From: Candidatus Enterousia sp.
GTDB taxonomy: Bacteria; Pseudomonadota; Alphaproteobacteria; Rs-D84
NCBI GenBank assembly: GCA_045536625.1
Contig: JAZSNY010000028.1
Coordinates: 1-56,490, forward strand
DNA: 56,490 nucleotides
Direction: 5' to 3'
The notes under the pieces are model-generated. The model was given only the letters and a program-made list of their open reading frames with translations, did not search any database and was not told the DNA's origin. Position numbers and translations under genes: made by a program. Shown in pieces: positions 5,104 to 29,349 of the stretch; the stretch's first letter is position 1; the number at the start of each line of letters is the position of its first letter.

Positions 5104-5251
5104 GGCATCGGGAAATCCCGGCGTGGGGCTTAAGCACTCCTTTGAACGCGTTAGAGATAACGTCAAAATCTCCAACCTATGCGGTTGGAGTGTGGTGAAT
5201 ATATTGAATAAACCCGCAATTTCGTTCAAATTGTGCTTAAACTCCAACCGC
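5104..5251 (+). ncRNA. Structured leader resembling the phage c4/CI antisense-RNA plus target architecture
   Basis: Four short hairpins; TTAAGCAC/GTGCTTAA, TTTGAACG/CGTTCAAA and GCGGTTGGAGT/ACTCCAACCGC long-range complementary pairs. Confidence 0.5.
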
Positions 5252-8606: not shown

Positions 8607-9230
8607 TTATATCCCCTTTGAATTGTCTTGAATAGAAACCTTGTCACCGGCATTTACGGTGGATAATATCACAATATCCCCGGTTTCCAATCCCGATGTA
8701 ACATATGCTGTATCAGAATCCGTACGTGCAACAGTTACCACACGTGGCGTAGCAACACCATCAAGTACCACAAAAACAATATCATCATGTATGGCATATA
8801 ATGGCACAAAAAAACCATCTGCCGAAAATTCTGCGTAATGCAAACCATCCGGGACATCGCGCGTTTTAACAACAAACATCCCCGTATCCAAATCCAAACC
8901 ATTGGACACAGATACAATACGACCATCACCAACACGCTGACCCGCACGTAATTTTTCAGCACGTGCACCCGTTACATATGCACGATTATTCTTGACCGCC
9001 AGGGGTTCATACAACACGCCCATTTTTCTGTCCATTTCCAAAACCTGGACCGGGGTACCAACATCGGCCGCAACACGCGACGCATTAAAAACATAACGTG
9101 CATTTTCAGATGCAACCGCGCCAAAACGAAACACAACCCAACCAACCAACAGCACAGCAATTGCCGCATGCATAATATGCTTGAAGCGTTTACTGTTTAT
9201 AGTTTCATATACTTTTTCCATTTTATTCAC
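8607..9230 (-). CDS. Short periplasmic adaptor (MFP-like) subunit
   Basis: N-terminal TM; GRIVSVSNGLDLDTGMFVV, FVPLYAI and VTSGLETGDIVI motifs; lies between TolC and the RND gene. Confidence 0.75.
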   Translation of the reverse strand: MNKMEKVYETINSKRFKHIMHAAIAVLLVGWVVFRFGAVASENARYVFNASRVAADVGTPVQVLEMDRKMGVLYEPLAVKNNRAYVTGARAEKLRAGQRVGDGRIVSVSNGLDLDTGMFVVKTRDVPDGLHYAEFSADGFFVPLYAIHDDIVFVVLDGVATPRVVTVARTDSDTAYVTSGLETGDIVILSTVNAGDKVSIQDNSKGI

Positions 9231-10551
9231 CCAACTTTTTTACCGTTTCCGCAGACATTAATATTTTGTATTTTGTGTTTAATAACGCCAAATCCAACTG
9301 ATACAATCCCGCCGACACATCCGCCAATTCCACCGCAGACGTTTGCCCCGATGCGAAACGATTTTGTGACAAAGTATAGGTCTTGGCCGCCAAATTTCGT
9401 GCGTTTTCCAGTGATGCCAAATTGTCACGCAAATGATTGTATTGACGAATTGCATTATCATATTGTTCCGTTGTTATCTTCTTGGCCTGGGCCAGGTCTT
9501 GACGCGCAGCTTCGGCATTCATGGCGTCAATCGTTGCGTTTGCGCGATTTAGACCACCACTGAAAATCGGCACCTGCAATGCAATACCCCATGATGCAGA
9601 TTGACCGCCTTTTTTATCAAACAGATGCCCGATATCACCCGACATTGATGAATATGTATAAGATGCAGTCGCCGCCAACGTAGGGTATCCATTCGCACGT
9701 TGCGAACGCGCCAAACGTTCATACATATCCACCTGTTGTTCAAGGATACTCCATTGGGGCGTAGAGTTTAATTTATCGGCCGACAAAACAGAAAATTCAG
9801 ACGGAAAACCATCCGTCAAAACCAATGGTTCTGACACATCAATACCCGCCAAAATCTTTAACATGCGGTGCGCGGTATCACGATCAAATTTGGCATCAGA
9901 AACATTTATTTCCTTGGTCGCAATATCCGATTCTATTTTTAATAAATTGCTGCGATTGGCACGCCCCGCAGATGTCAATTTCTGTTTGGCAGCACGCGCA
10001 TTTTTCAAATCATTTTCGGCCAACTTTACAATTTCATCGGTCATCTTGGCCGTCCAATATAAGTCCGCGGCGGCATAACGCACCTCGCGTTGGGTCAATT
10101 CTTGTGACGATTTGGCCATTTTTAATGCAGACTTTACAGACTTGACCGCATTACCAATCTTGCCAAAAGTATAAATAGGCTGACTGAGTGTCAAACCCGC
10201 CTGGAAAATATTATCGGGAAATTCAATCACAATTGACTGGTCCTTTAATGTTTCGGATATCAGCCCACCCAAAGACGGTGGCAATTCTATCTTTTGGGAT
10301 TCTGATGGATTTTCAACATTAACCATGTTCATATACGATACAGAACCATCCAATTTAAACCAACGATTTGCGTTGGCGGCATCAAGTGACGCCTGGGCCC
10401 GAGCCAAATTTGCGTCAGCCTTTTTGATATCATGCGATTCATGCATAATTTTTTCAACCGCATCCCCCAACGACAAATCCAATGCAAATGACGGCATGGT
10501 TCCCATCATTGCCGCCAATACACCAAATACAGAAATAATTTTTTTATTCAT
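9223..10551 (-). CDS. TolC-family outer membrane efflux protein
   Basis: Signal peptide, LSQPIYTFGK, LQVPIFSGG, FASGQTSAVEL; OEP repeats. Confidence 0.92.
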   Translation of the reverse strand: MNKKIISVFGVLAAMMGTMPSFALDLSLGDAVEKIMHESHDIKKADANLARAQASLDAANANRWFKLDGSVSYMNMVNVENPSESQKIELPPSLGGLISETLKDQSIVIEFPDNIFQAGLTLSQPIYTFGKIGNAVKSVKSALKMAKSSQELTQREVRYAAADLYWTAKMTDEIVKLAENDLKNARAAKQKLTSAGRANRSNLLKIESDIATKEINVSDAKFDRDTAHRMLKILAGIDVSEPLVLTDGFPSEFSVLSADKLNSTPQWSILEQQVDMYERLARSQRANGYPTLAATASYTYSSMSGDIGHLFDKKGGQSASWGIALQVPIFSGGLNRANATIDAMNAEAARQDLAQAKKITTEQYDNAIRQYNHLRDNLASLENARNLAAKTYTLSQNRFASGQTSAVELADVSAGLYQLDLALLNTKYKILMSAETVKKLGE

Positions 10552-10993
10552 TACCTAACTCCACCTTTTTCAAAATATCACGCATCGTACGCAACGCATC
10601 GGTCAGACGCGCCTCATCCTCGCGCGAGATACCTGCAAAAACCCGCTCAATCCCTACACGAAATAAATCCATTGCCATGGTGGCCAATTCCGCACCACGC
10701 TGGGATACACAATACCATGTGTTACGGCGATCTTCTTCATCAATAGTACGAATAACCAGACCATCCGCCTCTAACTTTCTGAATGCCGCACATAGATTCG
10801 GCGCGGACACATGTTCGCGACGCGCAATATCTTTTAGGCGGGCACGACCACCATTATGCAAACGAACCAATATCGACATCATTTGACGTGGATAACCCGT
10901 TGTATCAACACGGTCCAAACGTAATTTGTCCGCAATTTTATCTAATGTCCAAATATTTTCTTCCATTAAACGAACAAAATCCTTGCGTGGCAT
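10544..10993 (-). CDS. MarR-family transcriptional regulator
   Basis: Winged HTH, KLEADGLVIRTIDEEDRR; GGAG RBS; first gene of the efflux operon. Confidence 0.92.
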   Translation of the reverse strand: MPRKDFVRLMEENIWTLDKIADKLRLDRVDTTGYPRQMMSILVRLHNGGRARLKDIARREHVSAPNLCAAFRKLEADGLVIRTIDEEDRRNTWYCVSQRGAELATMAMDLFRVGIERVFAGISREDEARLTDALRTMRDILKKVELGNE

Positions 10994-11164: not shown

Positions 11165-11839
11165 ATGACTTTGAAAGATATATTGATACGCTTTGGATTG
11201 GCAAAAGACGACATTTTCCAAATCCCACACGAACTGGAATACTATGCAAAAATGTTCTTTGATCAGATTTTACCCCAAATCGAGCAAATAACAAATCAGT
11301 CACGACATGGATATCATGGTCTGACACATACATGCCAGGTGGCCTTGTTTGGTTTGGATATTGCGTACACCATCAAGCAAGACCCCCTGCCCGTTTTATT
11401 GGCGGCCGGATTACACGATTGCGCACGCACAAATGACGAGTGGTGCACCGAACACGGCCCACGCGCCGTGCCAATCGCACGTGAATTCCTGGGGAAAAAT
11501 TATCCGTATATGTCAAAAGACAATGTAAAAAAGATATTATACGCGGTAAAAAATCATACGTGTGGCATGCGGGCACGCGACGGGGTATCGGCATGTCTGT
11601 GGGACGGGGACAGAATTCGCCTGTCATGGGAATTTGAATACAGACCGGAATTCTTTTCGACCATGCGTGGTCGTCAGATTGCGGCCCTTGGGTATGCGGG
11701 GCAATTAACATACATTAATAACCAAGAAGATATGTTAATAAAAAATAATATACGAACACGCGAACAAATTGAATACGACCGCAAACACGATGAAATACAA
11801 AATAACATCGGTACAAATTTTAAATCACGCATAAAATAA
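11165..11839 (+). CDS. HD-domain metal-dependent phosphohydrolase
   Basis: HGLTH...LHDCAR...EHG...NH...WDGDR motif order. Confidence 0.8.
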   Translation: MTLKDILIRFGLAKDDIFQIPHELEYYAKMFFDQILPQIEQITNQSRHGYHGLTHTCQVALFGLDIAYTIKQDPLPVLLAAGLHDCARTNDEWCTEHGPRAVPIAREFLGKNYPYMSKDNVKKILYAVKNHTCGMRARDGVSACLWDGDRIRLSWEFEYRPEFFSTMRGRQIAALGYAGQLTYINNQEDMLIKNNIRTREQIEYDRKHDEIQNNIGTNFKSRIK

Positions 11840-11888
11840 TTTTATTATTGCAAAAACGCAAAATATATTTATAATGCGTAATCGCAAT

Positions 11889-11962
11889 TGGGGTGTCGTC
11901 TAATGGTAGGACAAGAGATTTTGGTTCTCTTTATCATGGTTCGAATCCGTGCGCCCCAACCA
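11889..11962 (+). tRNA. tRNA-Gln(UUG)
   Basis: Cloverleaf TGGGGTG/CGCCCCA, anticodon arm AGAGA-TTTTGGT-TCTCT, GGTTCGAATCC, encoded CCA; promoter TTGCAA-16-TATAAT at 11848-11875. Confidence 0.97.
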
Positions 11963-11968
11963 ATATTC

Positions 11969-11991
11969 AAACGCCCCTTTTTGGGGCGTTT
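11969..11991 (+). terminator. Terminator after tRNA-Gln
   Basis: AAACGCCCC-TTTTT-GGGGCGTTTT. Confidence 0.75.
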
Positions 11992-12122
11992 TAATATTGA
12001 ACGGGGCCACGGTTCGTAATCAGCAACGCCAGTTGCCGGTTCGACAATGAGTAGATTTGATAAACAACGTGCAATCAAATCGTCAGGAATGCCCCGCAGG
12101 CATAATATGCCGAGGGAATTGA

Positions 12123-12137
12123 GTGCGCCCCAACCAA
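12123..12137 (+). repeat. Direct repeat of the tRNA-Gln 3' end (att-like)
   Basis: GTGCGCCCCAACCAA identical to 11949-11963, followed by its own terminator at 12145-12166. Confidence 0.8.
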
Positions 12138-12255
12138 AATAAACAATGCCCATAGGGGCATTTTTTGCTATACATACGGATTGCGTAATCTGTTGCGGTG
12201 ATTGCATCACAAAACATTATCAAGGTTTTTACCATAAAAAATTATTCTAATTGGC

Positions 12256-12284
12256 TTGAAAAACATAAAAATATTGTCTAGAAT
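12256..12284 (+). promoter_or_regulatory. Sigma70-like promoter for the structured RNA / glycan operon
   Basis: TTGAAA-17 nt-TAGAAT. Confidence 0.65.
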
Positions 12285-12300
12285 TCGGATTAAGTAAAAG

Positions 12301-12445
12301 TTACAAGAAATTGACCAAGCTTTTTCTTGACAAGCTTAGTTCCCTGGGACTTTTGTGGTTAATAGAATCTTGTAATATGGAGGAGTGGTGCAATCGTAAG
12401 ACCATCAGGGCTGCCGACTAAGCAGTTGTTTGAGCTCCTCCGCCA
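12301..12445 (+). ncRNA. Unassigned structured RNA with a 3' tRNA-like CCA-ending module (12379-12445)
   Basis: TTACAAGA/TCTTGTAA and ATTGACCA/TGGTTAAT stems enclosing two hairpins, then GGAGGAGT...GCTCCTCC-GCCA. Confidence 0.55.
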
Positions 12446-12463
12446 AAATAAAAAGGAAGAATT

Positions 12464-13318
12464 ATGCGCCCCACGCCACGCGTGTCTGTATTGACGCCGA
12501 TTTATAATACTAATCCACAACATCTGCGGGAATGCATTGAGTCCATATTGGCGCAAACCTTTACCGATTTTGAATTTTTAATTTTGAATGACAGTCCCGA
12601 CAACACCGAAATTGAAAAAATTGTGTTGGAATATGCAACACGTGACAAGCGTATTAAATATTTAAAAAATGATAAAAATATGGGGATTACGCCTTCGCGC
12701 AACAAATTAATCAAGATGGCGCGTGGTGAGTATATTGCAATTTTTGACCATGATGATATTTCCATGCCCAACCGTTTGCAACGCGAAGTAGAATATCTGG
12801 ATGCCAATCCGTATATTGGTGTCGTGTCTGGGTTGATGCAAAATTTTGGTTCCAACAATGCGATACGCACCGCACCAGAATTGGACACGGATATAAAGAT
12901 AGCAATGACCAATAATTGCAGCGTTTGGCATACGGCGGCAATGGTACGAAAATCTGTGTTGGTTGATAATGGTATAGAATATGAAGAATACTATTCCCCA
13001 TGTGAAGATTACCGTCTTTGGTCACAGCTGATGGATAAAACTAAATTCTATAATCTGCAAATAGTTTTGGTTAAATACCGTATGTTTCAGGAACAAACTT
13101 CGTCCAAACAAAAAACAAAAATGAATACCATGCATCGTGCAATTCAGTTGGAAATGGCCAATCGTTTTCCAGCATATTATGACGCATGGCGCGTGTCAGA
13201 TGCACACACAACAAGTTTTCGTCTGCGACTGTTTGGTTTTTTGCCACTGATAAAGGTAAAGCACAATATTGTATATCTGTTTGAATTTGTACCGTTGTTC
13301 AAAATCAAGTGGAGATAG
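12464..13318 (+). CDS. Glycosyltransferase family 2
   Basis: VSVLTPIYN, ILNDSPDN, GEYIAIFDHDD, CEDYRLW. Confidence 0.93.
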   Translation: MRPTPRVSVLTPIYNTNPQHLRECIESILAQTFTDFEFLILNDSPDNTEIEKIVLEYATRDKRIKYLKNDKNMGITPSRNKLIKMARGEYIAIFDHDDISMPNRLQREVEYLDANPYIGVVSGLMQNFGSNNAIRTAPELDTDIKIAMTNNCSVWHTAAMVRKSVLVDNGIEYEEYYSPCEDYRLWSQLMDKTKFYNLQIVLVKYRMFQEQTSSKQKTKMNTMHRAIQLEMANRFPAYYDAWRVSDAHTTSFRLRLFGFLPLIKVKHNIVYLFEFVPLFKIKWR

Positions 13319-13322
13319 CACC

Positions 13323-14009
13323 GTGAAACGTGTATTTGTCAATTTTTTTGCTTTTCTTATACCATTTCCAAATACTAGGCGGCAAATACGCGAAAAACTG
13401 TTGCACCCAAAACAATATGAATGGAAGCAAAAAAATCTGCATAATTTTACAACCCTGGGGGTAGCGACGAATCCAAATGTAATAACTGTTGGACGCGGAA
13501 CATATGGTGTGCTGAATGTCGAAGCGCCAAGTAATGAAAAAGCAAAACTTGTTATTGGTAATTTCTGTTCAATTGGGCCAAATGTACATTTTATTTTGGC
13601 ATCCGAACATCCGTATCATGGATTTTCAACATATCCGTTCAAAGTAAAACTGGGGCTGCAACAATATGAAGCAAAATCCAAGGGCGACATTATTGTAGAT
13701 GACGATGTTTGGATTGGACATGGCGTAATTATTAATTCCGGTGTACACATTGGACGCGGTGCAATTGTCGCATCTGGGGCAGTTGTGGTCAAAGATGTAG
13801 AACCGTATTGTATTGTTGGTGGGAATCCCGCCAAACAAATAAAATATCGTTTCGCGGACAATATTCGTAAAAAACTTATGAAAATTGATTTCGCAAATTT
13901 GAATACCGATGAAATTGCAAAAAATATTGACGTTGCATATATGGAAATAACAGAAGATAATGTTGATAAAATCATTGAAACTATTACACAAAGAAAGGGA
14001 AAAAAATGA
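13323..14009 (+). CDS. Hexapeptide-repeat O-acetyltransferase (CatB/Vat-like)
   Basis: IGNFCSIG, KGDIIVDDDVWIG, GAIVASGAVVVKDVEPYCIVGGNPAK; probable GTG start at 13323. Confidence 0.9.
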   Translation: MKRVFVNFFAFLIPFPNTRRQIREKLLHPKQYEWKQKNLHNFTTLGVATNPNVITVGRGTYGVLNVEAPSNEKAKLVIGNFCSIGPNVHFILASEHPYHGFSTYPFKVKLGLQQYEAKSKGDIIVDDDVWIGHGVIINSGVHIGRGAIVASGAVVVKDVEPYCIVGGNPAKQIKYRFADNIRKKLMKIDFANLNTDEIAKNIDVAYMEITEDNVDKIIETITQRKGKK

Positions 14010-14788
14010 AAGTACTGATCTTGGCAGGGGGACTGGGGACACGTTTGGGCGAAGAAACATCTTTGAAACCTAAACCAATGGTTGAAATTGGTGGATATCC
14101 TATATTATGGCACATAATGAAAATTTATTCACATTATGGGTTTAATGACTTTGTCGTTTTGACAGGGTATAAACAAGAAATCATTAAACGCTATTTTGTT
14201 GATTACTATATGAACAATTGTGATATCACGGTAAATCTAGCGGAAAACAGTGTCAATATACACAAAAATCATTGCGAACCATGGAATGTTACTATGTTGT
14301 ATACCGGCACGGAAACATTAACGGCGGGACGCATAAAACGCGCACGCGATTTGGTTGGTGATGAACCATTTATGCTGACATACGGCGATGGCGTTGCCGA
14401 CATTGATATCCAGGCGTTAGTTAAGGCCCACAACGAATCCGGGAAATTATGCACCCTTACAGCATATCAGCCAACGGGAAAATATGGTGCGTTGGATATA
14501 CAACCCAATGGTACAATAACATCATTTTTGGAAAAACCAAAGGAAAGCGGTTCGTGGATAAATGCAGGATTTATGGTGTGCGAACCAGGTGTTTTCGATT
14601 ATTTGCCAGACGATTCAGACAGCATGATGTTTGAAAAAGGACCGCTTAACGAACTTTCCAAAAACGGTCAATTAAATGCGTATAAGCATGTTGGCTTTTG
14701 GCATCCTATGGATATGTTAAAGGACAAAAATGATTTAAATGAAATGTGGGATAAAAATATTGCACCCTGGAAAAAATGGAGTAACTAA
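14006..14788 (+). CDS. rfbF: Glucose-1-phosphate cytidylyltransferase
   Basis: ILAGGLGTRLGEETSLKPKPMVEIG, FMLTYGDGVAD, GFWHPMD. Confidence 0.96.
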   Translation: MKVLILAGGLGTRLGEETSLKPKPMVEIGGYPILWHIMKIYSHYGFNDFVVLTGYKQEIIKRYFVDYYMNNCDITVNLAENSVNIHKNHCEPWNVTMLYTGTETLTAGRIKRARDLVGDEPFMLTYGDGVADIDIQALVKAHNESGKLCTLTAYQPTGKYGALDIQPNGTITSFLEKPKESGSWINAGFMVCEPGVFDYLPDDSDSMMFEKGPLNELSKNGQLNAYKHVGFWHPMDMLKDKNDLNEMWDKNIAPWKKWSN

Positions 14789-14790
14789 TT

Positions 14791-15882
14791 ATGTTTAATA
14801 ACATTTATAATGGTCGTCGGGTATTGATTACTGGTCATGCCGGTTTTAAGGGCGCCTGGATGGCGTTTTGGCTAAAGCAAATGGGCGCGCATGTTTATGG
14901 GTATTCATTGTTACCGAACACAAATCCACGCATGTATAATGTCTTGAAATTGGGCGATTTGATTGATGGCGAAATGATTGCAGATATTCGGGATACGGAA
15001 AAATTGAATGCTTTTTTTGAATCTGTACGCCCGGAAATTGTATTTCATTTGGCGGCGCAACCAATTGTGCGCCTGTCCTATGCAGAACCTGTCGAAACCT
15101 ATACAACAAATGTAATCGGCACGTTAAATGTATTAGAGGCCGCACGTAAAATAGAATCTGTGCGCGCATTTGTAAATGTAACAACAGATAAATGTTATGA
15201 AAACCAAGAAAAAAAGGAAGGATATAGAGAAGAAGAACCATTTGGTGGGTATGACATGTATTCTTCATCCAAAGGATGCAGCGAAATCCTGACGTCTTCA
15301 TATCGTCGTTCATTTTTAACCGATGGCAAACCGTTTGCTTTGGCAAGTGCACGTGCCGGAAACGTTATTGGCGGGGGAGATTGGGCGACCGACAGATTAA
15401 TTCCAGATTGTATACGCGCCTTTAAAGGTGGCGAAACCGTTTCTATACGCAATCCGTTCGCAACACGTCCGTGGCAGTTGGTGTTAGAACCGTTGGCAGG
15501 ATATCTGCGCCTGGGGCAAATGCTGTTGGAACATGGGACAGAATACGCAAGTGGATATAACTTTGGCCCAGAAATGGATGCCGATGTTCGTGTGGCAGAG
15601 GTAGCACAAATGGTTGCCGATTTCTGGGGCAATGGAGCGACCGTATCGGTGGGATCGGGTGATGGGTTGCATGAAGCAAACCTGTTACAATTAAATGTAG
15701 AAAAGGCGGCACGTGAATTGGGGGTAATGCCGGTATACGACGCAAAAACAGCCGTAAAAAAAACGACCGACTGGTATCGCGCTTTTTATGACGAAAATAC
15801 CGATATGACACAATTTACAATTCAACAAATTAACGATTTTGTTGCATCGGCACAAAATAAAAATATCAAATGGAGCTTATAA
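14791..15882 (+). CDS. rfbG: CDP-glucose 4,6-dehydratase
   Basis: ITGHAGFKGAW, FHLAAQPIVRLSY, TTDKCYEN, YSSSK, ARAGNVIGGGDW. Confidence 0.96.
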   Translation: MFNNIYNGRRVLITGHAGFKGAWMAFWLKQMGAHVYGYSLLPNTNPRMYNVLKLGDLIDGEMIADIRDTEKLNAFFESVRPEIVFHLAAQPIVRLSYAEPVETYTTNVIGTLNVLEAARKIESVRAFVNVTTDKCYENQEKKEGYREEEPFGGYDMYSSSKGCSEILTSSYRRSFLTDGKPFALASARAGNVIGGGDWATDRLIPDCIRAFKGGETVSIRNPFATRPWQLVLEPLAGYLRLGQMLLEHGTEYASGYNFGPEMDADVRVAEVAQMVADFWGNGATVSVGSGDGLHEANLLQLNVEKAARELGVMPVYDAKTAVKKTTDWYRAFYDENTDMTQFTIQQINDFVASAQNKNIKWSL

Positions 15883-17246
15883 TGACCAAAGAAGAAATAA
15901 GAAGTAAAATGCATGAATTGGCATCACAATATGCCGAGTGTTTGGATGTTGAAAAAAGAACTTCTGAAAAAAAGTACATACCTGCATCGGGAAAAAATAT
16001 CGGTGCAGAAGAACTGCAAAACATGATTGACGCCTCTTTGGATATGTGGTTAACCGCTGGACGCTTTAATGATCAATTTGAACATGATTTTGCAGAAAAA
16101 TTGGGGGTACGTTTCGCACTATCAACCAATTCAGGTTCCAGTGCAAATCTGTTGGCTTTTACCGCGTTAACATCTCCAAAACTGGGTGAGCGCGCATTAA
16201 AACGCGGTGACGAAGTTATCGCAGTGGCCGCCGGGTTTCCAACAACCGTTAATCCGATTATTCAAAATGGCATGACACCGGTGTTTGTTGATTGTCATGT
16301 CGGAACATATAATGTAGATATTGAAAAATTAAAATCTGCAATTTCGCCAAAGACACGCGCTATTTTCTTGGCTCATACATTGGGAAATATGTATGACATG
16401 GACGAAATAATGAAAATTGCAAACGAGCATAATTTATGGGTAATCGAGGACAGTTGCGATGCCCTGGGGGCAAAATGGAACGGAAAATATGCAGGTACAA
16501 TCGGACACATTGGGACGTTTAGTTTCTATCCGGCGCATCATTTAACCATGGGAGAAGGTGGCGCCGTTATTACCAATGACCCAAAACTGCATCGTATAAT
16601 TATGTCATATCGTGATTGGGGGCGTGACTGTTGGTGTAAGCCGGGCCGTGATGACACATGTCATAATCGCTTTAAATTAAAGTTGGGGGCGTTACCGGTT
16701 GGATACGACCATAAGTACACATATTCACATATTGGATATAATCTTAAAATTACTGATTGGCAGGCCGCGATTGGTGTCGCCCAATTGAAAAAATTGGATT
16801 CTTTTTTGGAACAAAGAAGAAAAAACGCAAATGCTTTGTTGGCGGGGCTAAAACCATTTGAAAATTATCTGATTCTGCCACAGGTACACGATATGTGTTC
16901 CCCATCATGGTTTGGATTTTTAATATCTGTGCGTGATGATGCGCCGTTCTCTAAACAGGAACTGGTTGAACATCTTGAATCACAGGGAATTGGCACACGC
17001 CAGTTGTTCGCAGGTAACATTTTGCGTCAACCAATGGTTACAATGGCAGATTTTGATTTACGTATCGGCGATAGTGGGGTGGTAAACTCGCACAATCTGT
17101 CCGAAAGTGATTTTGAAAAGTTACCCGGAACAGAATTCATTATGAATCATACTTTTTGGGTTGGATGCGCACAAAATCTGACCGAAAAGGATGTACAAAA
17201 GACAGTAGATGTAATTTCTGAATTTATCAAGGCCAAAACAAAATGA
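15882..17246 (+). CDS. rfbH: CDP-4-keto-6-deoxyglucose 3-dehydrase (E1, DdhC)
   Basis: NSGSSANLLA, SFYPAHHLTMGEGG (His in place of Lys), WGRDCWC...C, GYDHKY. Confidence 0.95.
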   Translation: MTKEEIRSKMHELASQYAECLDVEKRTSEKKYIPASGKNIGAEELQNMIDASLDMWLTAGRFNDQFEHDFAEKLGVRFALSTNSGSSANLLAFTALTSPKLGERALKRGDEVIAVAAGFPTTVNPIIQNGMTPVFVDCHVGTYNVDIEKLKSAISPKTRAIFLAHTLGNMYDMDEIMKIANEHNLWVIEDSCDALGAKWNGKYAGTIGHIGTFSFYPAHHLTMGEGGAVITNDPKLHRIIMSYRDWGRDCWCKPGRDDTCHNRFKLKLGALPVGYDHKYTYSHIGYNLKITDWQAAIGVAQLKKLDSFLEQRRKNANALLAGLKPFENYLILPQVHDMCSPSWFGFLISVRDDAPFSKQELVEHLESQGIGTRQLFAGNILRQPMVTMADFDLRIGDSGVVNSHNLSESDFEKLPGTEFIMNHTFWVGCAQNLTEKDVQKTVDVISEFIKAKTK

Positions 17247-18016
17247 TGAAAACACCGAATCAAATCAGGCGAAATATTGTGCATATGGCACATTATTCGC
17301 ATGCTTCGCATATTGGGGCGGCTTTGTCATGCGTTGATGTGCTGTATGCAATATACAAATACGTTGCCGATATAACCCCCGAAAATATAAAATCCGCAAA
17401 TCGTGACCGTGTTATTTTATCCAAAGGCCATGCATCAATCGCGCTGTATTCTGTGTTGGCAGAAACTGGGCTGATGGATGCTTCTTTGTTGGATAAATAT
17501 TATATTAATGGCGGTTTGTTGCCGGGACATTTGGACCAAGAATCTGTACCAGGGATTGATTGTTCGGCGGGTTCGTTGGGACATGGGTTACCAATAGGAA
17601 TTGGGATGGCAATGGCCAATCCCGACAAACGCGTATTTGTTGTAATTGGCGATGGAGAAACCAACGAAGGTAGCGTATGGGAAGCGATTATTTTCGCAGG
17701 CTGTCATAAAATCCCGAATCTGACCATTATTATAGACAATAATAATTTACAGGGGTTTGGATGTGCAGACGAATGTGCAGATTATTCAAAACTGTCAGAT
17801 ACCTTAAACAACTTTGGCCTGTGCGCGGTTGATATTGACGGACATGATACCGACCAAATCGTTTCTGCATTGAAAAAGACGTGCGATAAAACATTGGCAA
17901 TTGTTGCACATACAATCAAAGGACGCGGTGTTTCGTTTATGGAAAACGAATTAAAGTGGCACTATAAATCACCAAATGACGAAGAATTGGCCATCGCGAT
18001 GGAGGAATTAAAATGA
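17243..18016 (+). CDS. Transketolase-like, N-terminal (TPP-binding) subunit
   Basis: SHIGAALS, ILSKGHA, GSLGHGL, GDGETNEGSVWEA, HTIKGRGVSFMEN. Confidence 0.93.
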   Translation: MMKTPNQIRRNIVHMAHYSHASHIGAALSCVDVLYAIYKYVADITPENIKSANRDRVILSKGHASIALYSVLAETGLMDASLLDKYYINGGLLPGHLDQESVPGIDCSAGSLGHGLPIGIGMAMANPDKRVFVVIGDGETNEGSVWEAIIFAGCHKIPNLTIIIDNNNLQGFGCADECADYSKLSDTLNNFGLCAVDIDGHDTDQIVSALKKTCDKTLAIVAHTIKGRGVSFMENELKWHYKSPNDEELAIAMEELK

Positions 18017-18918
18017 GAAATACATTTTTAAACACTTTGGTTGAAATGGCAAAAAAAGATGAACGCATTTGGCTGATAACGCCCGATTTGGGTTATGCGG
18101 TTTTGGAACCATTCAAGGAGTTATTCCCAAATCGGTTTATAAACGCTGGCATTTCCGAACAAAACGCGGTGGGTATGGCGGCGGGGTTGGCCATGTCGGG
18201 CAAGATTCCATATGTATACAGTATTATGCCTTTTGTCACATCACGACCGTTTGAACAGGTCAAGGTAGATGTTGCCTATATGAACACAAATGTACGCCTT
18301 GTTGGTGTTGGCGCGGGGTTTGCATATGGACCAGCGGGCGCGACACATCACAGTATTGACGATTTGGCGATTATGCGCGCGTTACCAAATATGTCGGTTG
18401 TAGCACCGGGCGATTTGCACGAAGCCGCAGATTTAACACGCTATTCGGTGAACCATAATGGGCCGATGTATATTCGATTAAATAAACGCGGCGAACCAAC
18501 ATACGATTACCCTGTTGAATTCGGCAAATTTTCGCAGGTGTTTGACGGCGATGCATTCGCAGTTATTGCGACATCGGGTATGTTGCGTGATGCGTATGAT
18601 ACGGTTGTCGGATATCGCAATCGTGGGATAAATGCGGCATTATATAGCGCGCATACGATAAAGCCATTTGATACCGAATGTGTGCTTGATTTGGTTCGGC
18701 GACACATACCCATTATCACAATTGAAGAACACAATGTGATTGGCGGGCTGTATTCCGCGGTTGCGGAAACGGTTGCGCGCAGCGGTATGGCGGCACGTAT
18801 ATTGCCAATTGCCGTTCCGGACCGTTTTTCACACTTTGTTGGCGACCAAAATTATATCCGTGAAAAAATGGGTTTGTCACATTTAGATGAACAAATAAAT
18901 GAGTTTTTGAAATGCTGA
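18013..18918 (+). CDS. Transketolase-like, C-terminal subunit
   Basis: NAGISEQNAVGMAAGLA, GATHHSIDD, TIEEHNVIGGL. Confidence 0.93.
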   Translation: MRNTFLNTLVEMAKKDERIWLITPDLGYAVLEPFKELFPNRFINAGISEQNAVGMAAGLAMSGKIPYVYSIMPFVTSRPFEQVKVDVAYMNTNVRLVGVGAGFAYGPAGATHHSIDDLAIMRALPNMSVVAPGDLHEAADLTRYSVNHNGPMYIRLNKRGEPTYDYPVEFGKFSQVFDGDAFAVIATSGMLRDAYDTVVGYRNRGINAALYSAHTIKPFDTECVLDLVRRHIPIITIEEHNVIGGLYSAVAETVARSGMAARILPIAVPDRFSHFVGDQNYIREKMGLSHLDEQINEFLKC

Positions 18919-19916
18919 ACGATATTTTAGAAATTGTTTTGGTAACATATAATCGCCGCGACAAGTTGATGCGCACAATGGAACAATTGTTGGCAGAGAC
19001 ATCACCTGTACGCGATATTGATATAACTGTTGTAGATAATCGTTCAACAGACGGGACGTCTGAGTATATTCGAACATTAGCGGATATGCATAAAAATATA
19101 CACCATATTCGTCGACCACGCAATGTGGGCGCGAATGCTAATATTGCATATGCATATGAAATTGCATGCAAAAAATATTTATGGGTATTATGTGATGATG
19201 ATGTATATGATTTTACCGCATGGGATAATATCGTTGATGCGATAAATCAGGAACGAGATATAATCATTACATCTAAATATGCATTGCCACGAAAAAAATC
19301 AAAAATAGGCACATTGGCCCTGTTGTCACAAGCCACGTTTGTCCCAGGTGTGATTATCAAAACAAATTGTTTAGACGATACAACATTACGTAATATATAC
19401 GACAATGTATGGACGATGTACGTTCAATTAATACCAGTTGTAACGATGTTGAACAATGGTTGTGAATTCTTTATACCAGATGGTCCCGCTATTGTAAAAA
19501 ATGGATTTGATTACGGGAAGGAGTTAAGATCTGGGTTTGATGGATGTAAAAATTATTGCAGAGGTGCAAATTCAGAGAGAATGTACTATCGTAGCGCGCA
19601 CATGTCACAATTTGTTGGTTTTGCCAATGTGTTATCTTTGCTGAAAGACGAAGAGTTGAAAAGAAAACATCTTGACGGATTTATTAGAGGTTCAAAGCCC
19701 TTGTTAAAAGAGATGCTAAAAAATATTCAGGACAGAATATATTTTGCAGATATATATTCGCAATTATCTAGAAAGCAACGATTAAAATTTTGGTGTAATT
19801 GTATACGCCCCGGCAAGTTTTGGAAATGGATTTTTCATATAGATCATATTAAGCAAAATGGACACACAATGCCACAAAAGCAAATAACCTTTTTTGGCAA
19901 ACAAATTAAGCTCTAG
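18912..19916 (+). CDS. Glycosyltransferase family 2
   Basis: VTYNR, VVDNRSTDGT, NVGANAN, YLWVLCDDD. Confidence 0.9.
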   Translation: MLNDILEIVLVTYNRRDKLMRTMEQLLAETSPVRDIDITVVDNRSTDGTSEYIRTLADMHKNIHHIRRPRNVGANANIAYAYEIACKKYLWVLCDDDVYDFTAWDNIVDAINQERDIIITSKYALPRKKSKIGTLALLSQATFVPGVIIKTNCLDDTTLRNIYDNVWTMYVQLIPVVTMLNNGCEFFIPDGPAIVKNGFDYGKELRSGFDGCKNYCRGANSERMYYRSAHMSQFVGFANVLSLLKDEELKRKHLDGFIRGSKPLLKEMLKNIQDRIYFADIYSQLSRKQRLKFWCNCIRPGKFWKWIFHIDHIKQNGHTMPQKQITFFGKQIKL

Positions 19917-19922
19917 GAACCT

Positions 19923-20774
19923 ATGATGAAAATACTGTTAACTGGGTCTGGTGGTTTTATTGGACGAAATATTTTAGAAAAAATGGGTGATAAGTACGAA
20001 TTTATTCACCCGCGTTCGCGTGAATTAAACTTGATGGATGATAATGCGGTTAATGATTTTGTAAAATCAACAAAGCCAGATTTGATTATTCATTCTGCGG
20101 CGGCGGGGGTTCGTATTACGGCGGATGCAACACGCGATGATGTCGCCATACCAAACATAAAAATGTTTGATAATTTGGCACGACACGTATCAAAAAAATG
20201 TCCAATGTTCGTATTCGGTTCAGGGGCAGAATATGACAAATCGCGCGAGCTGAATTCTGTTGCAGAATCAGATTTTGGAACATCAATACCAAATGACCCA
20301 TATGGATATTCAAAATACATGATTTCCAAACGTATTGAACAAATGGACAATGTGTTAAATATGCGTATCTTTGGTATTTATGGCAAATATGAAAGCCCAA
20401 CACGTTTTACATCATATGCGGTTACACAAAATATAAAACATCAACCAATTGAAATAAATCAGGATGTTGTTTTCCAATTCTTGCATATAAACGACTTTTG
20501 CAATATTGTGGATTGGTTTATAAAAAACCAAACAGATGAACGATTTATCAATGTTTGCCCAGATGAAAAGATTACCTTGGTCGAACTGTCTAAAATCGTA
20601 AACAAGAATTCAACATATCATTCGGAAATTATTGTAAAAACACCGGGAATGAACCGTGAATATACGGGCAACAATCGTCGATTGCATGATATTATTCCAA
20701 ACCTTAATTTCACATCATATACAGATGGATTGAAACAATTTATGGAATTTATGATACACGACATGATGAAATGA
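19923..20774 (+). CDS. NAD-dependent epimerase/dehydratase/reductase (extended SDR)
   Basis: LTGSGGFIG, GSGAEY, YGYSK. Confidence 0.9.
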   Translation: MMKILLTGSGGFIGRNILEKMGDKYEFIHPRSRELNLMDDNAVNDFVKSTKPDLIIHSAAAGVRITADATRDDVAIPNIKMFDNLARHVSKKCPMFVFGSGAEYDKSRELNSVAESDFGTSIPNDPYGYSKYMISKRIEQMDNVLNMRIFGIYGKYESPTRFTSYAVTQNIKHQPIEINQDVVFQFLHINDFCNIVDWFIKNQTDERFINVCPDEKITLVELSKIVNKNSTYHSEIIVKTPGMNREYTGNNRRLHDIIPNLNFTSYTDGLKQFMEFMIHDMMK

Positions 20775-21682
20775 TGATGACAGAATCACCAATACTTTCG
20801 ATTTGTATCCCGACGTATAATCGTGCAGAATATTTGGCGCGAACATTGGACAGTATTATTGCACAACCACGATTTCAAAGCACCGGGGATGTAGAAGTTA
20901 TAATTTCTGATAATTGTTCGACGGACGATACACAAAATGTTGTAAATAAATATATCGAACAATACGGCAATAAAATCAGATATTTTCGCAATAACGAAAA
21001 TATATATGATAAAAACCTTGAGTTGGCGATGGCACGTGGACAAGGTGTGTTTTTAAAGGCACATAATGATACATTGATAGTACGTGATGGTACATTGGAC
21101 AAAATGTGTAGTTTTATTGAAAAATACATTAAAACAAAACACATCATTTTCTTTTTAAACAAAGCAAACAGCAATACCGTTCATGAATTCAATAATGCAA
21201 ATGATTTTATATCGCATATTTCAATTTATTCAACATGGATTGGTGGATTTGGATTGTGGAAAAGCGATTTTGATAAAATCAACGGTTTTTCACGGTTTGC
21301 CAAACAGAAATTGCCACAAACAGATGTTCTTTTTTCTTTAATGGAAATCAAGAATTATTTTGCCGTTATGGATGATATATTATTTGATGTTCAATCTGTA
21401 CCCAATAAGGGGGGATATAATATCGCAGAAGTATTTGGGAATAATTATATGATTTTACTGCGCCGAATATTGGGCAAAAAAATTATATCGCCACGCGTCT
21501 TTAATCAACAAATGCGAAAAATATTAAGACATATAAATCGTTTTTATTTTGATGTAAAGCATGAATATGCTTTTATGCGTGGCGATTACTGGCACCATAT
21601 GCACGATTGGCATTTTAAACCGTACTTTTATATAAGTATTATAAAAATATATTTAAAATTAATCTTTGCAGGGAATAAATAG
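20771..21682 (+). CDS. Glycosyltransferase family 2 (RfbV/abequosyltransferase-like)
   Basis: LSICIPTYNRAEYL, ISDNCSTDDT. Confidence 0.88.
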   Translation: MMMTESPILSICIPTYNRAEYLARTLDSIIAQPRFQSTGDVEVIISDNCSTDDTQNVVNKYIEQYGNKIRYFRNNENIYDKNLELAMARGQGVFLKAHNDTLIVRDGTLDKMCSFIEKYIKTKHIIFFLNKANSNTVHEFNNANDFISHISIYSTWIGGFGLWKSDFDKINGFSRFAKQKLPQTDVLFSLMEIKNYFAVMDDILFDVQSVPNKGGYNIAEVFGNNYMILLRRILGKKIISPRVFNQQMRKILRHINRFYFDVKHEYAFMRGDYWHHMHDWHFKPYFYISIIKIYLKLIFAGNK

Positions 21683-29274: not shown

Positions 29275-29349
29275 GGTCCCATCGTCTAGCGGTTAGGACA
29301 TCAGATTCTCATTCTGGTAACACGGGTTCGATTCCCGTTGGGACTGCCA
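29275..29349 (+). tRNA. tRNA-Glu(CUC)
   Basis: GGTCCCA/TGGGACT acceptor, TCAGA-TTCTCAT-TCTGG anticodon arm, GGTTCGATTCC, CCA. Confidence 0.97.

Follow-up and report, generated by a model that had tools for sequence, protein, structure and literature searches.

The window analysed here is a 56,490-nt contig (C9) of a Candidatus Enterousia genome (assembly of 928,893 bp in 47 contigs, 43% G+C, 90% completeness; labelled G000). It carries a glycan operon of ten genes (12464-21682, the end being approximate), preceded by a leader of about 170 nt that runs from a promoter-like site to the ATG at 12464. Within this leader lies a 63-nt module with the predicted fold of a three-way junction, which we interpret as a probable reduced member of an abundant family of leader RNAs. 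An initial annotation, made from the sequence of the window, had described the leader as an unannotated two-domain RNA ending in a tRNA-like, CCA-terminated module. The features of the locus are given below; G118 denotes a second genome of the genus, D2 the junction domain of the RNA family, and R1 and R2 the two covariance models introduced later.

12256..12284, + strand: promoter-like site, TTGAAA-17 nt-TAGAAT, 10/12 consensus positions
12301..12376, + strand: 'domain 1' of the initial annotation, a predicted four-helix minimum-free-energy fold in the leader; no conservation
12379..12441, + strand: reduced three-way-junction module (family domain D2), by homology to G118, models R1 and R2, and alignment with full-length relatives
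12379-12386 with 12434-12441, + strand: helix P1
12387-12390 with 12403-12406, + strand: remnant of helix P2
12407-12409, + strand: joining segment J2/3 (AGG)
12410-12414 with 12422-12426, + strand: helix P3, loop 12415-12421
12427-12433, + strand: joining segment J3/1 (UGUUUGA)
12442..12445, + strand: GCCA, the joint between the end of P1 and an A-rich spacer before the ribosome-binding site, from the sequence; ACUU in G118
12453..12466, + strand: Shine-Dalgarno-like AAGGAAG (12453-12459) and the ATG of the first operon gene (12464-12466), read from the sequence and the list of open reading frames (ORFs)
12464..13318, + strand: family-2 glycosyltransferase gene, first of the glycan operon (Pfam PF00535, E 9.7e-31)

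The junction module in the glycan operon leader

Interrogation of all 257 genomes of the genus by blastn, using positions 12250-12466 as query, returned a single meaningful match, G118:C37:19468-19530 (equivalent to L043:1501-1563), which is 75% identical over 63 nt, gap-free, and covers exactly positions 12379-12441 of the window. Wider searches with the leader, spanning 60 relatives, 29 tRNA-Gln loci, the window's own genome and the 257 genomes of the genus, retrieved beyond G118 only A/T-rich stretches of promoters or ribosome-binding sites no longer than 45 nt, and a metagenome pattern scan for the reduced form gave three loci, all of them unrelated GC-rich sequence. The reduced form is therefore represented in two of the 257 genomes, that of the window and G118. 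On this homologue, and on the covariance models described below, rests the proposal that the 5' leader of the glycan operon holds a structured RNA module lying behind a good promoter-like site.

Comparison of the two sequences revealed that all 17 base pairs are kept in both, two of them with changes on both sides and three with a change on one. Helix P1 (GGAGGAGU/GCUCCUCC, 8/8 pairs) and the 7-nt J3/1 segment UGUUUGA are identical; the P2 stump reads GGUG/CAUC in the window versus GGUG/CACC in G118; and P3 reads GCUGC/GCAGU versus AUUAC/GUGAU, such that four of its five pairs have changed while pairing is maintained. The flanks of the module cannot be aligned between the two genomes on either side. 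In the window 22 nt separate the end of the module from the start codon; in G118 the element likewise occupies a leader, 33 nt before a gene for a 190-residue helix-turn-helix protein, and behind it stands the gene of an orthologous glycosyltransferase, 64% identical to that encoded in the window. Directly upstream of this leader and glycosyltransferase cassette in G118 lies a serine recombinase (resolvase) gene (L043 672-1289), an arrangement consistent with mobility of the cassette.

The helices listed in the initial annotation for its two domains are indeed the minimum-free-energy folds of 12301-12376 and 12379-12445, the second being an 8-bp GGAGGAGU/GCUCCUCC helix that encloses two hairpins. 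Folding energy was discarded as evidence for an RNA, the values being statistically unremarkable throughout: the whole leader (12290-12470) folds at -41.4 kcal/mol compared with -39.99 +/- 3.5 in shuffled sequences (z -0.40; 69/200 shuffles as good), domain 1 at -17.4 kcal/mol (z -1.77; 11/200), or with z -1.36 (14/200) when taken as 12285-12378, and domain 2 with z -1.14 (26/200). Domain 2 is counted as above chance because of its conservation, manifest in the G118 homologue and in two independent covariance models, and not because of energy. No such conservation attends domain 1, for which a blastn search of the genus (256 further genomes) yielded no homologue. A nucleotide profile (nhmmer) of the upstream domain of the full-length family (D1, below), which in this genome retrieved six full copies (E 3e-24 to 7.5e-15), gave no match at 12290-12378 or upstream of the element in L043 at E<=100. 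Judged by these comparisons, domain 1 is leader sequence unrelated to the upstream domain of the family, and its predicted fold lacks support from conservation. The description of a two-domain RNA accordingly fits the full-length family and, by homology, fails for the window's copy.

Several further features were sought in the leader. Reading of the sequence revealed no segment complementary to the 5' strand of P1, and a terminator search found no terminator-like site between 12441 and 12464. A leader peptide was rejected as a candidate, since the window and G118, on reading of the two sequences, do not have the same short ORFs across P1. Sequestration of the Shine-Dalgarno sequence by the 3' strand of P1 was likewise discarded: the fold of 12426-12480 has z 0.27, and G118 has a different alternative hairpin.

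The promoter TTGAAA-17-TAGAAT proposed earlier was recovered at 12256-12284, and 94 nt separate the end of its -10 hexamer from P1. A scan of 11800-12700 yielded seven promoter-like sites, compared with 3.0 +/- 1.5 in shuffled sequence. The 3' flank of the preceding tRNA-Gln gene is conserved in several species of the genus as far as about 12230, where conservation stops; promoter, leader and operon therefore belong to a variable island. Behind the tRNA gene (11963-12140) stands a unit of about 170 bp that ends with a second copy of the tRNA 3' end, GTGCGCCCCAACCAA, at 12124-12138 (the same letters as at 11948-11962), with a terminator hairpin behind each of the two copies. Six relatives conserve the unit, which is tandemly repeated in two (L033 and L040) and looks like att-site debris of repeated island integration at tRNA-Gln, adjoining the glycan island. 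Just upstream of the tRNA-Gln locus (9223-10993) are genes for a TolC-like outer-membrane efflux protein (OEP, E 1.9e-41) and a MarR-family regulator; from the former it follows that this genome of about 0.9 Mb encodes outer-membrane functions.

A family of full-length leader RNAs

A covariance model built from the window and G118 sequences (R1) matched longer relatives in three genomes (G127, G063 and G107) at E about 1e-5. Using one full-length relative as query, blastn revealed matches in 90 of the 257 genomes of the genus, often several in each, and two in the window's own genome. From an alignment of 29 full copies, in which RNAalifold identified 21 pairs, nine of them with compensatory changes, we constructed a second model (R2) that excluded the window and G118 copies; E-values from both models are rough, their calibration having been shortened. 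When R2 was run with filters off over 113 kb, the reduced element was the top match: positions 12377-12443 scored highest in the whole window, albeit weakly (15.7 bits, E 0.35), and the G118 element scored highest in its locus (18.1 bits, E 0.099). These scores are low because most of P2 is missing from the reduced copies. R2 also matched positions 5184-5248 of the window weakly (14 bits, E 0.82, on both strands); this is a palindromic hairpin (GUUGGAGU...ACUCCAAC) devoid of inner helices and probably unrelated to the family.

Alignment of the window copy with its nearest full-length relatives, which lie in leaders of Stealth-family capsule genes, shows where the two forms differ. P1 reads GGAGGAG/CUCCUCC in the window versus GGGGGAG/CUCCCCC in the relatives, with one compensatory change from G-C to A-U; the window segment GGUGCAA...AAGACCAUC aligns with the P2 tip (GGU-GCAA-ACC) and P2 3' strand of full copies; and the P2 5' strand together with the AUACAACA loop, about 16 nt, has been deleted. 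In two other genomes (G204 and G220) it is instead the P2 tip that the copies have lost, and shortened forms have therefore arisen more than once. As delimited by this alignment, the element of the window comprises P1, a 4-bp P2 stump, J2/3, P3 and J3/1, and is without D1, the anti-P1 segment and the terminator of the full form.

A full-length member spans about 250 nt and presents, in order, a promoter, the upstream domain D1, the junction domain D2, an intrinsic terminator and a ribosome-binding site. D1 (about 130 nt) contains the hairpins GAAUCCA...UGGGUUC and GGGGC...GCCC, then variable hairpins, and closes with a segment, for example CCCUGAC, whose sequence complements the 5' strand of P1. 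D2 consists of P1 (GUCGGGG/CCCCGAC), P2 with a AUACAACA/GAAAG internal loop and a tip mostly capped by a GNRA-type loop, and P3. Across 45 copies (42 distinct), whose fitting to R2 is itself a caveat on the pairing statistics, 97.7% of cells are paired compared with 87.2% in shuffles and 30-60% in slid controls; 14 of the 21 pairs have changes on both sides, and none of 500 shuffles reaches any of the five measures used. The family is a real structured RNA.

Immediately after P1 comes, in 41 of 43 distinct copies, a perfect hairpin, 5 bp or longer and commonly of the form GACCGCC-loop-GGCGGUC, and behind it a stretch of 9 nt with five or more U. In 40 of those 41 the 5' arm of this terminator starts inside the last 3 nt of P1, and P1 and terminator therefore compete for the same three bases. 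The anti-P1 segment at the end of D1 varies in step with P1 (GUUGGGG/CCCCAAC, GCGGGG/CCCUGC, GUCGGGU/ACCUGAC). Promoter-like sites scoring at least 9/12 occur upstream of 21 of 42 copies, with the distance from the -10 end to P1 mostly 113-132 nt (range 79-132). In the window's genome a co-directional ORF with a ribosome-binding site lies 33-131 nt downstream in each of the eight copies examined; by a cruder count, an ORF of at least 50 residues starts within 260 nt at 30 of 32 loci. Pyrimidines often predominate in the terminator loop (UCCC, CUUUCUU), which is then complementary to the G-rich ribosome-binding site that follows (L096, L097, L101, L110 and others); in the minimum-free-energy folds of L086 and L101 this pairing wins over the terminator. 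It hints at a possible pseudoknot or at translational control as a second layer, the predicted copy-specificity being borderline (275/5000 permutations as good).

The window's genome contains nine full copies by R2 (E 4.5e-16 to 4.8e-5), to which the Rfam model of sRNA-Xcc1 (RF02221) adds one candidate copy, on contig C40. In a sample of the order, R2 matched 128 of 151 genomes, and within the genus 101 of 107; by family, the counts were 111/121 (f1), 14/19 (f3), 2/4 (f2) and 0/6 (f4-f6). Copy number per genome of about 1 Mb ranges from the nine of the window's genome up to at least 30, and matches in the order sample exceed 1000. A separate pattern scan, covering one genome per prokaryote species, gave at least 119 loci; among the 80 of these that were listed, 32 are true members by R2, attributed to Candidatus Enterousia sp., uncultured Alphaproteobacteria (gut metagenome-assembled genomes) and a Rickettsiales bacterium, three members lying in bins that bear the label Muribaculaceae or Bacteroidales. 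On viral contigs the pattern scan gave 19 loci, of which R2 recognised none as a family member. Downstream genes with a Pfam match encode Stealth capsule phosphotransferases, RgpF, GT8 and GT2 glycosyltransferases, an OmpA-like beta-barrel, an N6/N4 DNA methylase and a PLD-like protein. Proteins lacking a Pfam match account for five of eight downstream products in the window's genome, these having N-termini that by eye resemble signal peptides, and for ten of 22 in other genomes. To our knowledge the family, at nine to at least 30 copies per approximately 1 Mb, is among the densest structured-RNA families in a bacterial genome.

A candidate switch and its probable remnant

These attributes suggest that the full-length family probably acts as an on/off transcription switch before surface and accessory genes. 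Three mutually exclusive pairings can be drawn in the full form, of the D1 tail with the P1 5' strand, of P1 with itself, and of the P1 tail within the terminator; from them we infer the switching. A folded junction and P1, stabilised by a putative effector, would deprive the terminator of three of its approximately seven or eight pairs, and RNA polymerase could then read through the weakened terminator into the gene, P1 acting as antiterminator. Strong conservation of unpaired nucleotides at the P2 loop and junctions suggests a bound effector, whether small molecule, protein or RNA. As to partners encoded in the genome, no NusG paralogue that might serve as a dedicated antiterminator was found, there being one NusG; an ANTAR profile gave no match in the genome, a negative that carries no weight, since its control search too was without a match in any genome. 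The three-state anatomy precedes gene classes usually varied by host-associated bacteria (surface glycans, exported proteins, a DNA methylase), and the family qualifies as an orphan-switch candidate.

We consider the module at 12379-12441 to be a deletion derivative of this abundant family, whose full form would be an ON-type attenuator, with the stump retained in a 5' untranslated region role; we place the probability of this reading at roughly 0.7. In the window and G118 copies nothing is left of D1, its tail or the terminator, and P2 is without its 5' half, including the AUACAACA loop. With its platform lost, the window copy would therefore no longer switch transcription in the manner proposed. 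Homology, structure and the absence of the platform are evident in the alignments; what the stump does at present we infer to be, most likely, a constitutive structural or stability function, or residual effector binding that acts on translation.

A number of observations weigh against this interpretation. The window copy scores weakly with R2 (15.7 bits, E 0.35) and gives no match to the sRNA-Xcc1 model; family membership is founded on rank, architecture, reciprocity and intermediate forms, without a significant score. Covariation between the two reduced sequences is anecdotal, 136 of 500 shuffles doing as well. For the full form, the mean anti-P1 run of 7.38 is a modest excess over shuffles (6.55 +/- 0.17), and cognate segments (7.38) barely surpass non-cognate ones (7.14) owing to the strong conservation of P1. 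Metagenomic DNA contigs representing four strains, each from a different study, are identical over 12256-12463, which is uninformative on variation and provides no population evidence of selection. Finally, the reduced form has lost the most conserved unpaired motif of the family and may be an inert relic.

A broader proposal, which we regard as tentative and rather doubtful, is that the full family constitutes a new class of ON-type riboswitch or attenuator whose junction, sharing its fold with sRNA-Xcc1, senses one global signal and so co-ordinates surface and contingency genes; sRNA-Xcc1 would then be a cis-acting leader, and the window copy a minimal, terminator-less form still binding the effector. 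If true, a contingency set of glycosyltransferases, exported and outer-membrane proteins and restriction-modification genes would be co-ordinated.

Of the competing explanations, the one that survives best, though we judge it unlikely at perhaps one chance in four, is that of an inert relic: deletions of D1, part of P2 and the terminator in a decaying full-length leader would have turned the operon constitutively on, with the helices persisting by recency or chance. The absence of every part of the expression platform, the unremarkable folding energy, the non-significant covariation of the two sequences and the restriction of the element to two of 257 genomes all accord with it. Against it, 63 nt have kept all 17 pairs, including eight of eight in P1, along with an identical 7-nt J3/1, and four of five P3 pairs have changed without loss of pairing. 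We favour a retained role over pure decay because the same deletions occur in G118, in a second species, where the adjacent glycosyltransferases are only 64% identical in amino acid sequence and the flanks are unrecognisable.

The tRNA-like reading of the initial annotation, in which a CCA-ended module is cut by RNase P to provide a processing signal or an aminoacyl carrier, has very little probability in our estimation, and the same estimate covers a c4-like antisense RNA. An 8-bp terminal helix followed by GCCA invites the reading; RNase P RNA is present in the genome (C1 18936-19268, 175 bits), and the phage P1 c4 repressor is an RNase P substrate. ARAGORN detected in the window only tRNA-Gln (11889-11962) and tRNA-Glu (29275-29349), and Rfam at gathering score only the same two (RF00005); at E<=10 with permissive filters, the region 11960-12560 gave three weak, unrelated matches and nothing resembling tRNA, transfer-messenger RNA (tmRNA) or signal recognition particle (SRP) RNA. 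A likeness to SRP RNA, flagged earlier for exclusion, is accordingly dismissed (RF00169, no match at E<=10 in this region). By alignment with full-length relatives, the supposed acceptor helix GGAGGAG/CUCCUCC is P1 of the leader family and the D-like arm is what remains of P2 after the deletion of about 16 nt. The molecule has three helices and neither a fourth arm nor a T-loop, the latter absence having been recognised from the outset. The GCCA is present as described at 12442-12445, but its conservation fails in the only close homologue, G118, which reads CUCCUCC-ACUU; a CCA not conserved in relatives was among the outcomes that the initial annotation had itself named as refuting. For this locus, the tempting reading as a non-canonical tRNA, or as a carrier of aminoacyl groups in envelope synthesis, is thereby removed.

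An antisense role finds some encouragement in the subgroup of Stealth-gene leaders, where the P3 loop can pair with the ribosome-binding site that follows it (-9.4 to -13.6 kcal/mol). Across 39 independent copies, however, loop complementarity to the cognate target was no better than to non-cognate ones (P3 loop, 631/5000 permutations as good; terminator loop, 275/5000); the loops of the window copy have, on reading, no complement near its own ribosome-binding site; and C4 antisense RNA (RF01695) had no match in the whole genome at E<=1.

Occurrence of the element in only two of 257 genomes implies that it cannot be an essential RNA, and the housekeeping RNAs were inventoried separately. By whole-genome ARAGORN, a permuted tmRNA (ssrA) lies at C8 16395-16749 on the minus strand, and all four tRNA-Ser genes are present with no tRNA-Sec; 6S RNA (ssrS) was not found in the genome. 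SRP RNA (ffs) went undetected by RF00169 in all 13 genomes of the genus searched (G000, with a threshold as loose as E<=10, and 12 others). The same model matched seven of eight genomes from other families of the order; a motif expression for SRP RNA gave no candidate; and the genome encodes the Ffh M domain, to which SRP RNA binds (G000:C4:2356-2655, 79 bits). An SRP RNA of strongly diverged sequence may exist in the genus.

That the element is a small RNA gene in its own right and acts in trans, as has been published for Xanthomonas sRNA-Xcc1, we think scarcely credible: sRNA-Xcc1 was indeed detected as a discrete transcript of some 88-100 nt (PMC2996969), and in the off state of the switch the terminator of full copies would yield a short RNA, but the window copy has no terminator and runs into a ribosome-binding site 22 nt later, and all full copies examined lie at fixed orientation and distance before an ORF.

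Relation to known RNAs

Among systems that resemble the window's copy, tRNA-Sec, allo-tRNAs and tmRNA share with it, and with it alone, an 8-bp terminal helix followed by GCCA; the window RNA differs in having neither a fourth arm nor a T-loop, in giving no detector match, and in a CCA that is not conserved. The c4 RNAs of phages P1 and P7 and IsrK (RF01695, RF01394) are similarly short multi-hairpin RNAs in the leader of the operon they control, on mobile DNA. The present family is distinguished from them by the lack of an RF01695 match in the genome at E<=1 and of general copy-specific antisense complementarity.

Similar in its logic is the pbuE adenine riboswitch, an ON-type switch with a three-way-junction aptamer. 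In such riboswitches a stabilised P1 prevents termination; as in pbuE, the P1 3' strand of our family is shared with the 5' arm of the terminator, and conserved junction and loop nucleotides accompany covarying helices. The family nonetheless has no sequence or Rfam relationship to ON-type riboswitches, carries an additional upstream domain, and precedes surface and accessory genes instead of those of a metabolic pathway. Its nine to at least 30 copies per genome of about 1 Mb are far above expectation for a typical riboswitch class. Among the literature matches listed, supplements being outside the scope, there was no report linking Enterousia to structured RNAs or riboswitches.

The nearest likeness is to sRNA-Xcc1 (RF02221), whose three-way junction, P2 internal loop AUACAA.A/GAA, mostly GNRA-type-capped P2 tip, P3 hairpin and U-rich J3/1 recur in full copies. 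Full-length relatives score 33.2-45.5 bits against that model (E 2.4e-5 to 0.02), with three matches at 33.4-38.5 bits in the window's own genome; no copy reaches the 53-bit gathering score, and the window copy, without the P2 5' strand, the AUACAA loop and the tip, gives no match at E<=10. The hosts differ as well, being gut Alphaproteobacteria with genomes of about 1 Mb here and Xanthomonadaceae there. In the portions of the published accounts available, sRNA-Xcc1 was observed in Northern blots of Xanthomonas campestris as an RNA of 88 nt (PMC2996969), lies in Xanthomonas integron cassettes upstream of and co-directional with symE (10.1101/2025.06.18.660453), and is present in seven copies in Xylella, some beside C4 and isrK annotations (PMC12189769, Table 4). 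All three treat it as a trans-acting small RNA, and their descriptions in those portions, supplements being outside the scope, do not include the upstream domain, the anti-P1 segment or the P1-overlapping terminator that the family described here adds. This added anatomy offers a mechanistic lead for sRNA-Xcc1, an Rfam family annotated in many proteobacterial genomes.

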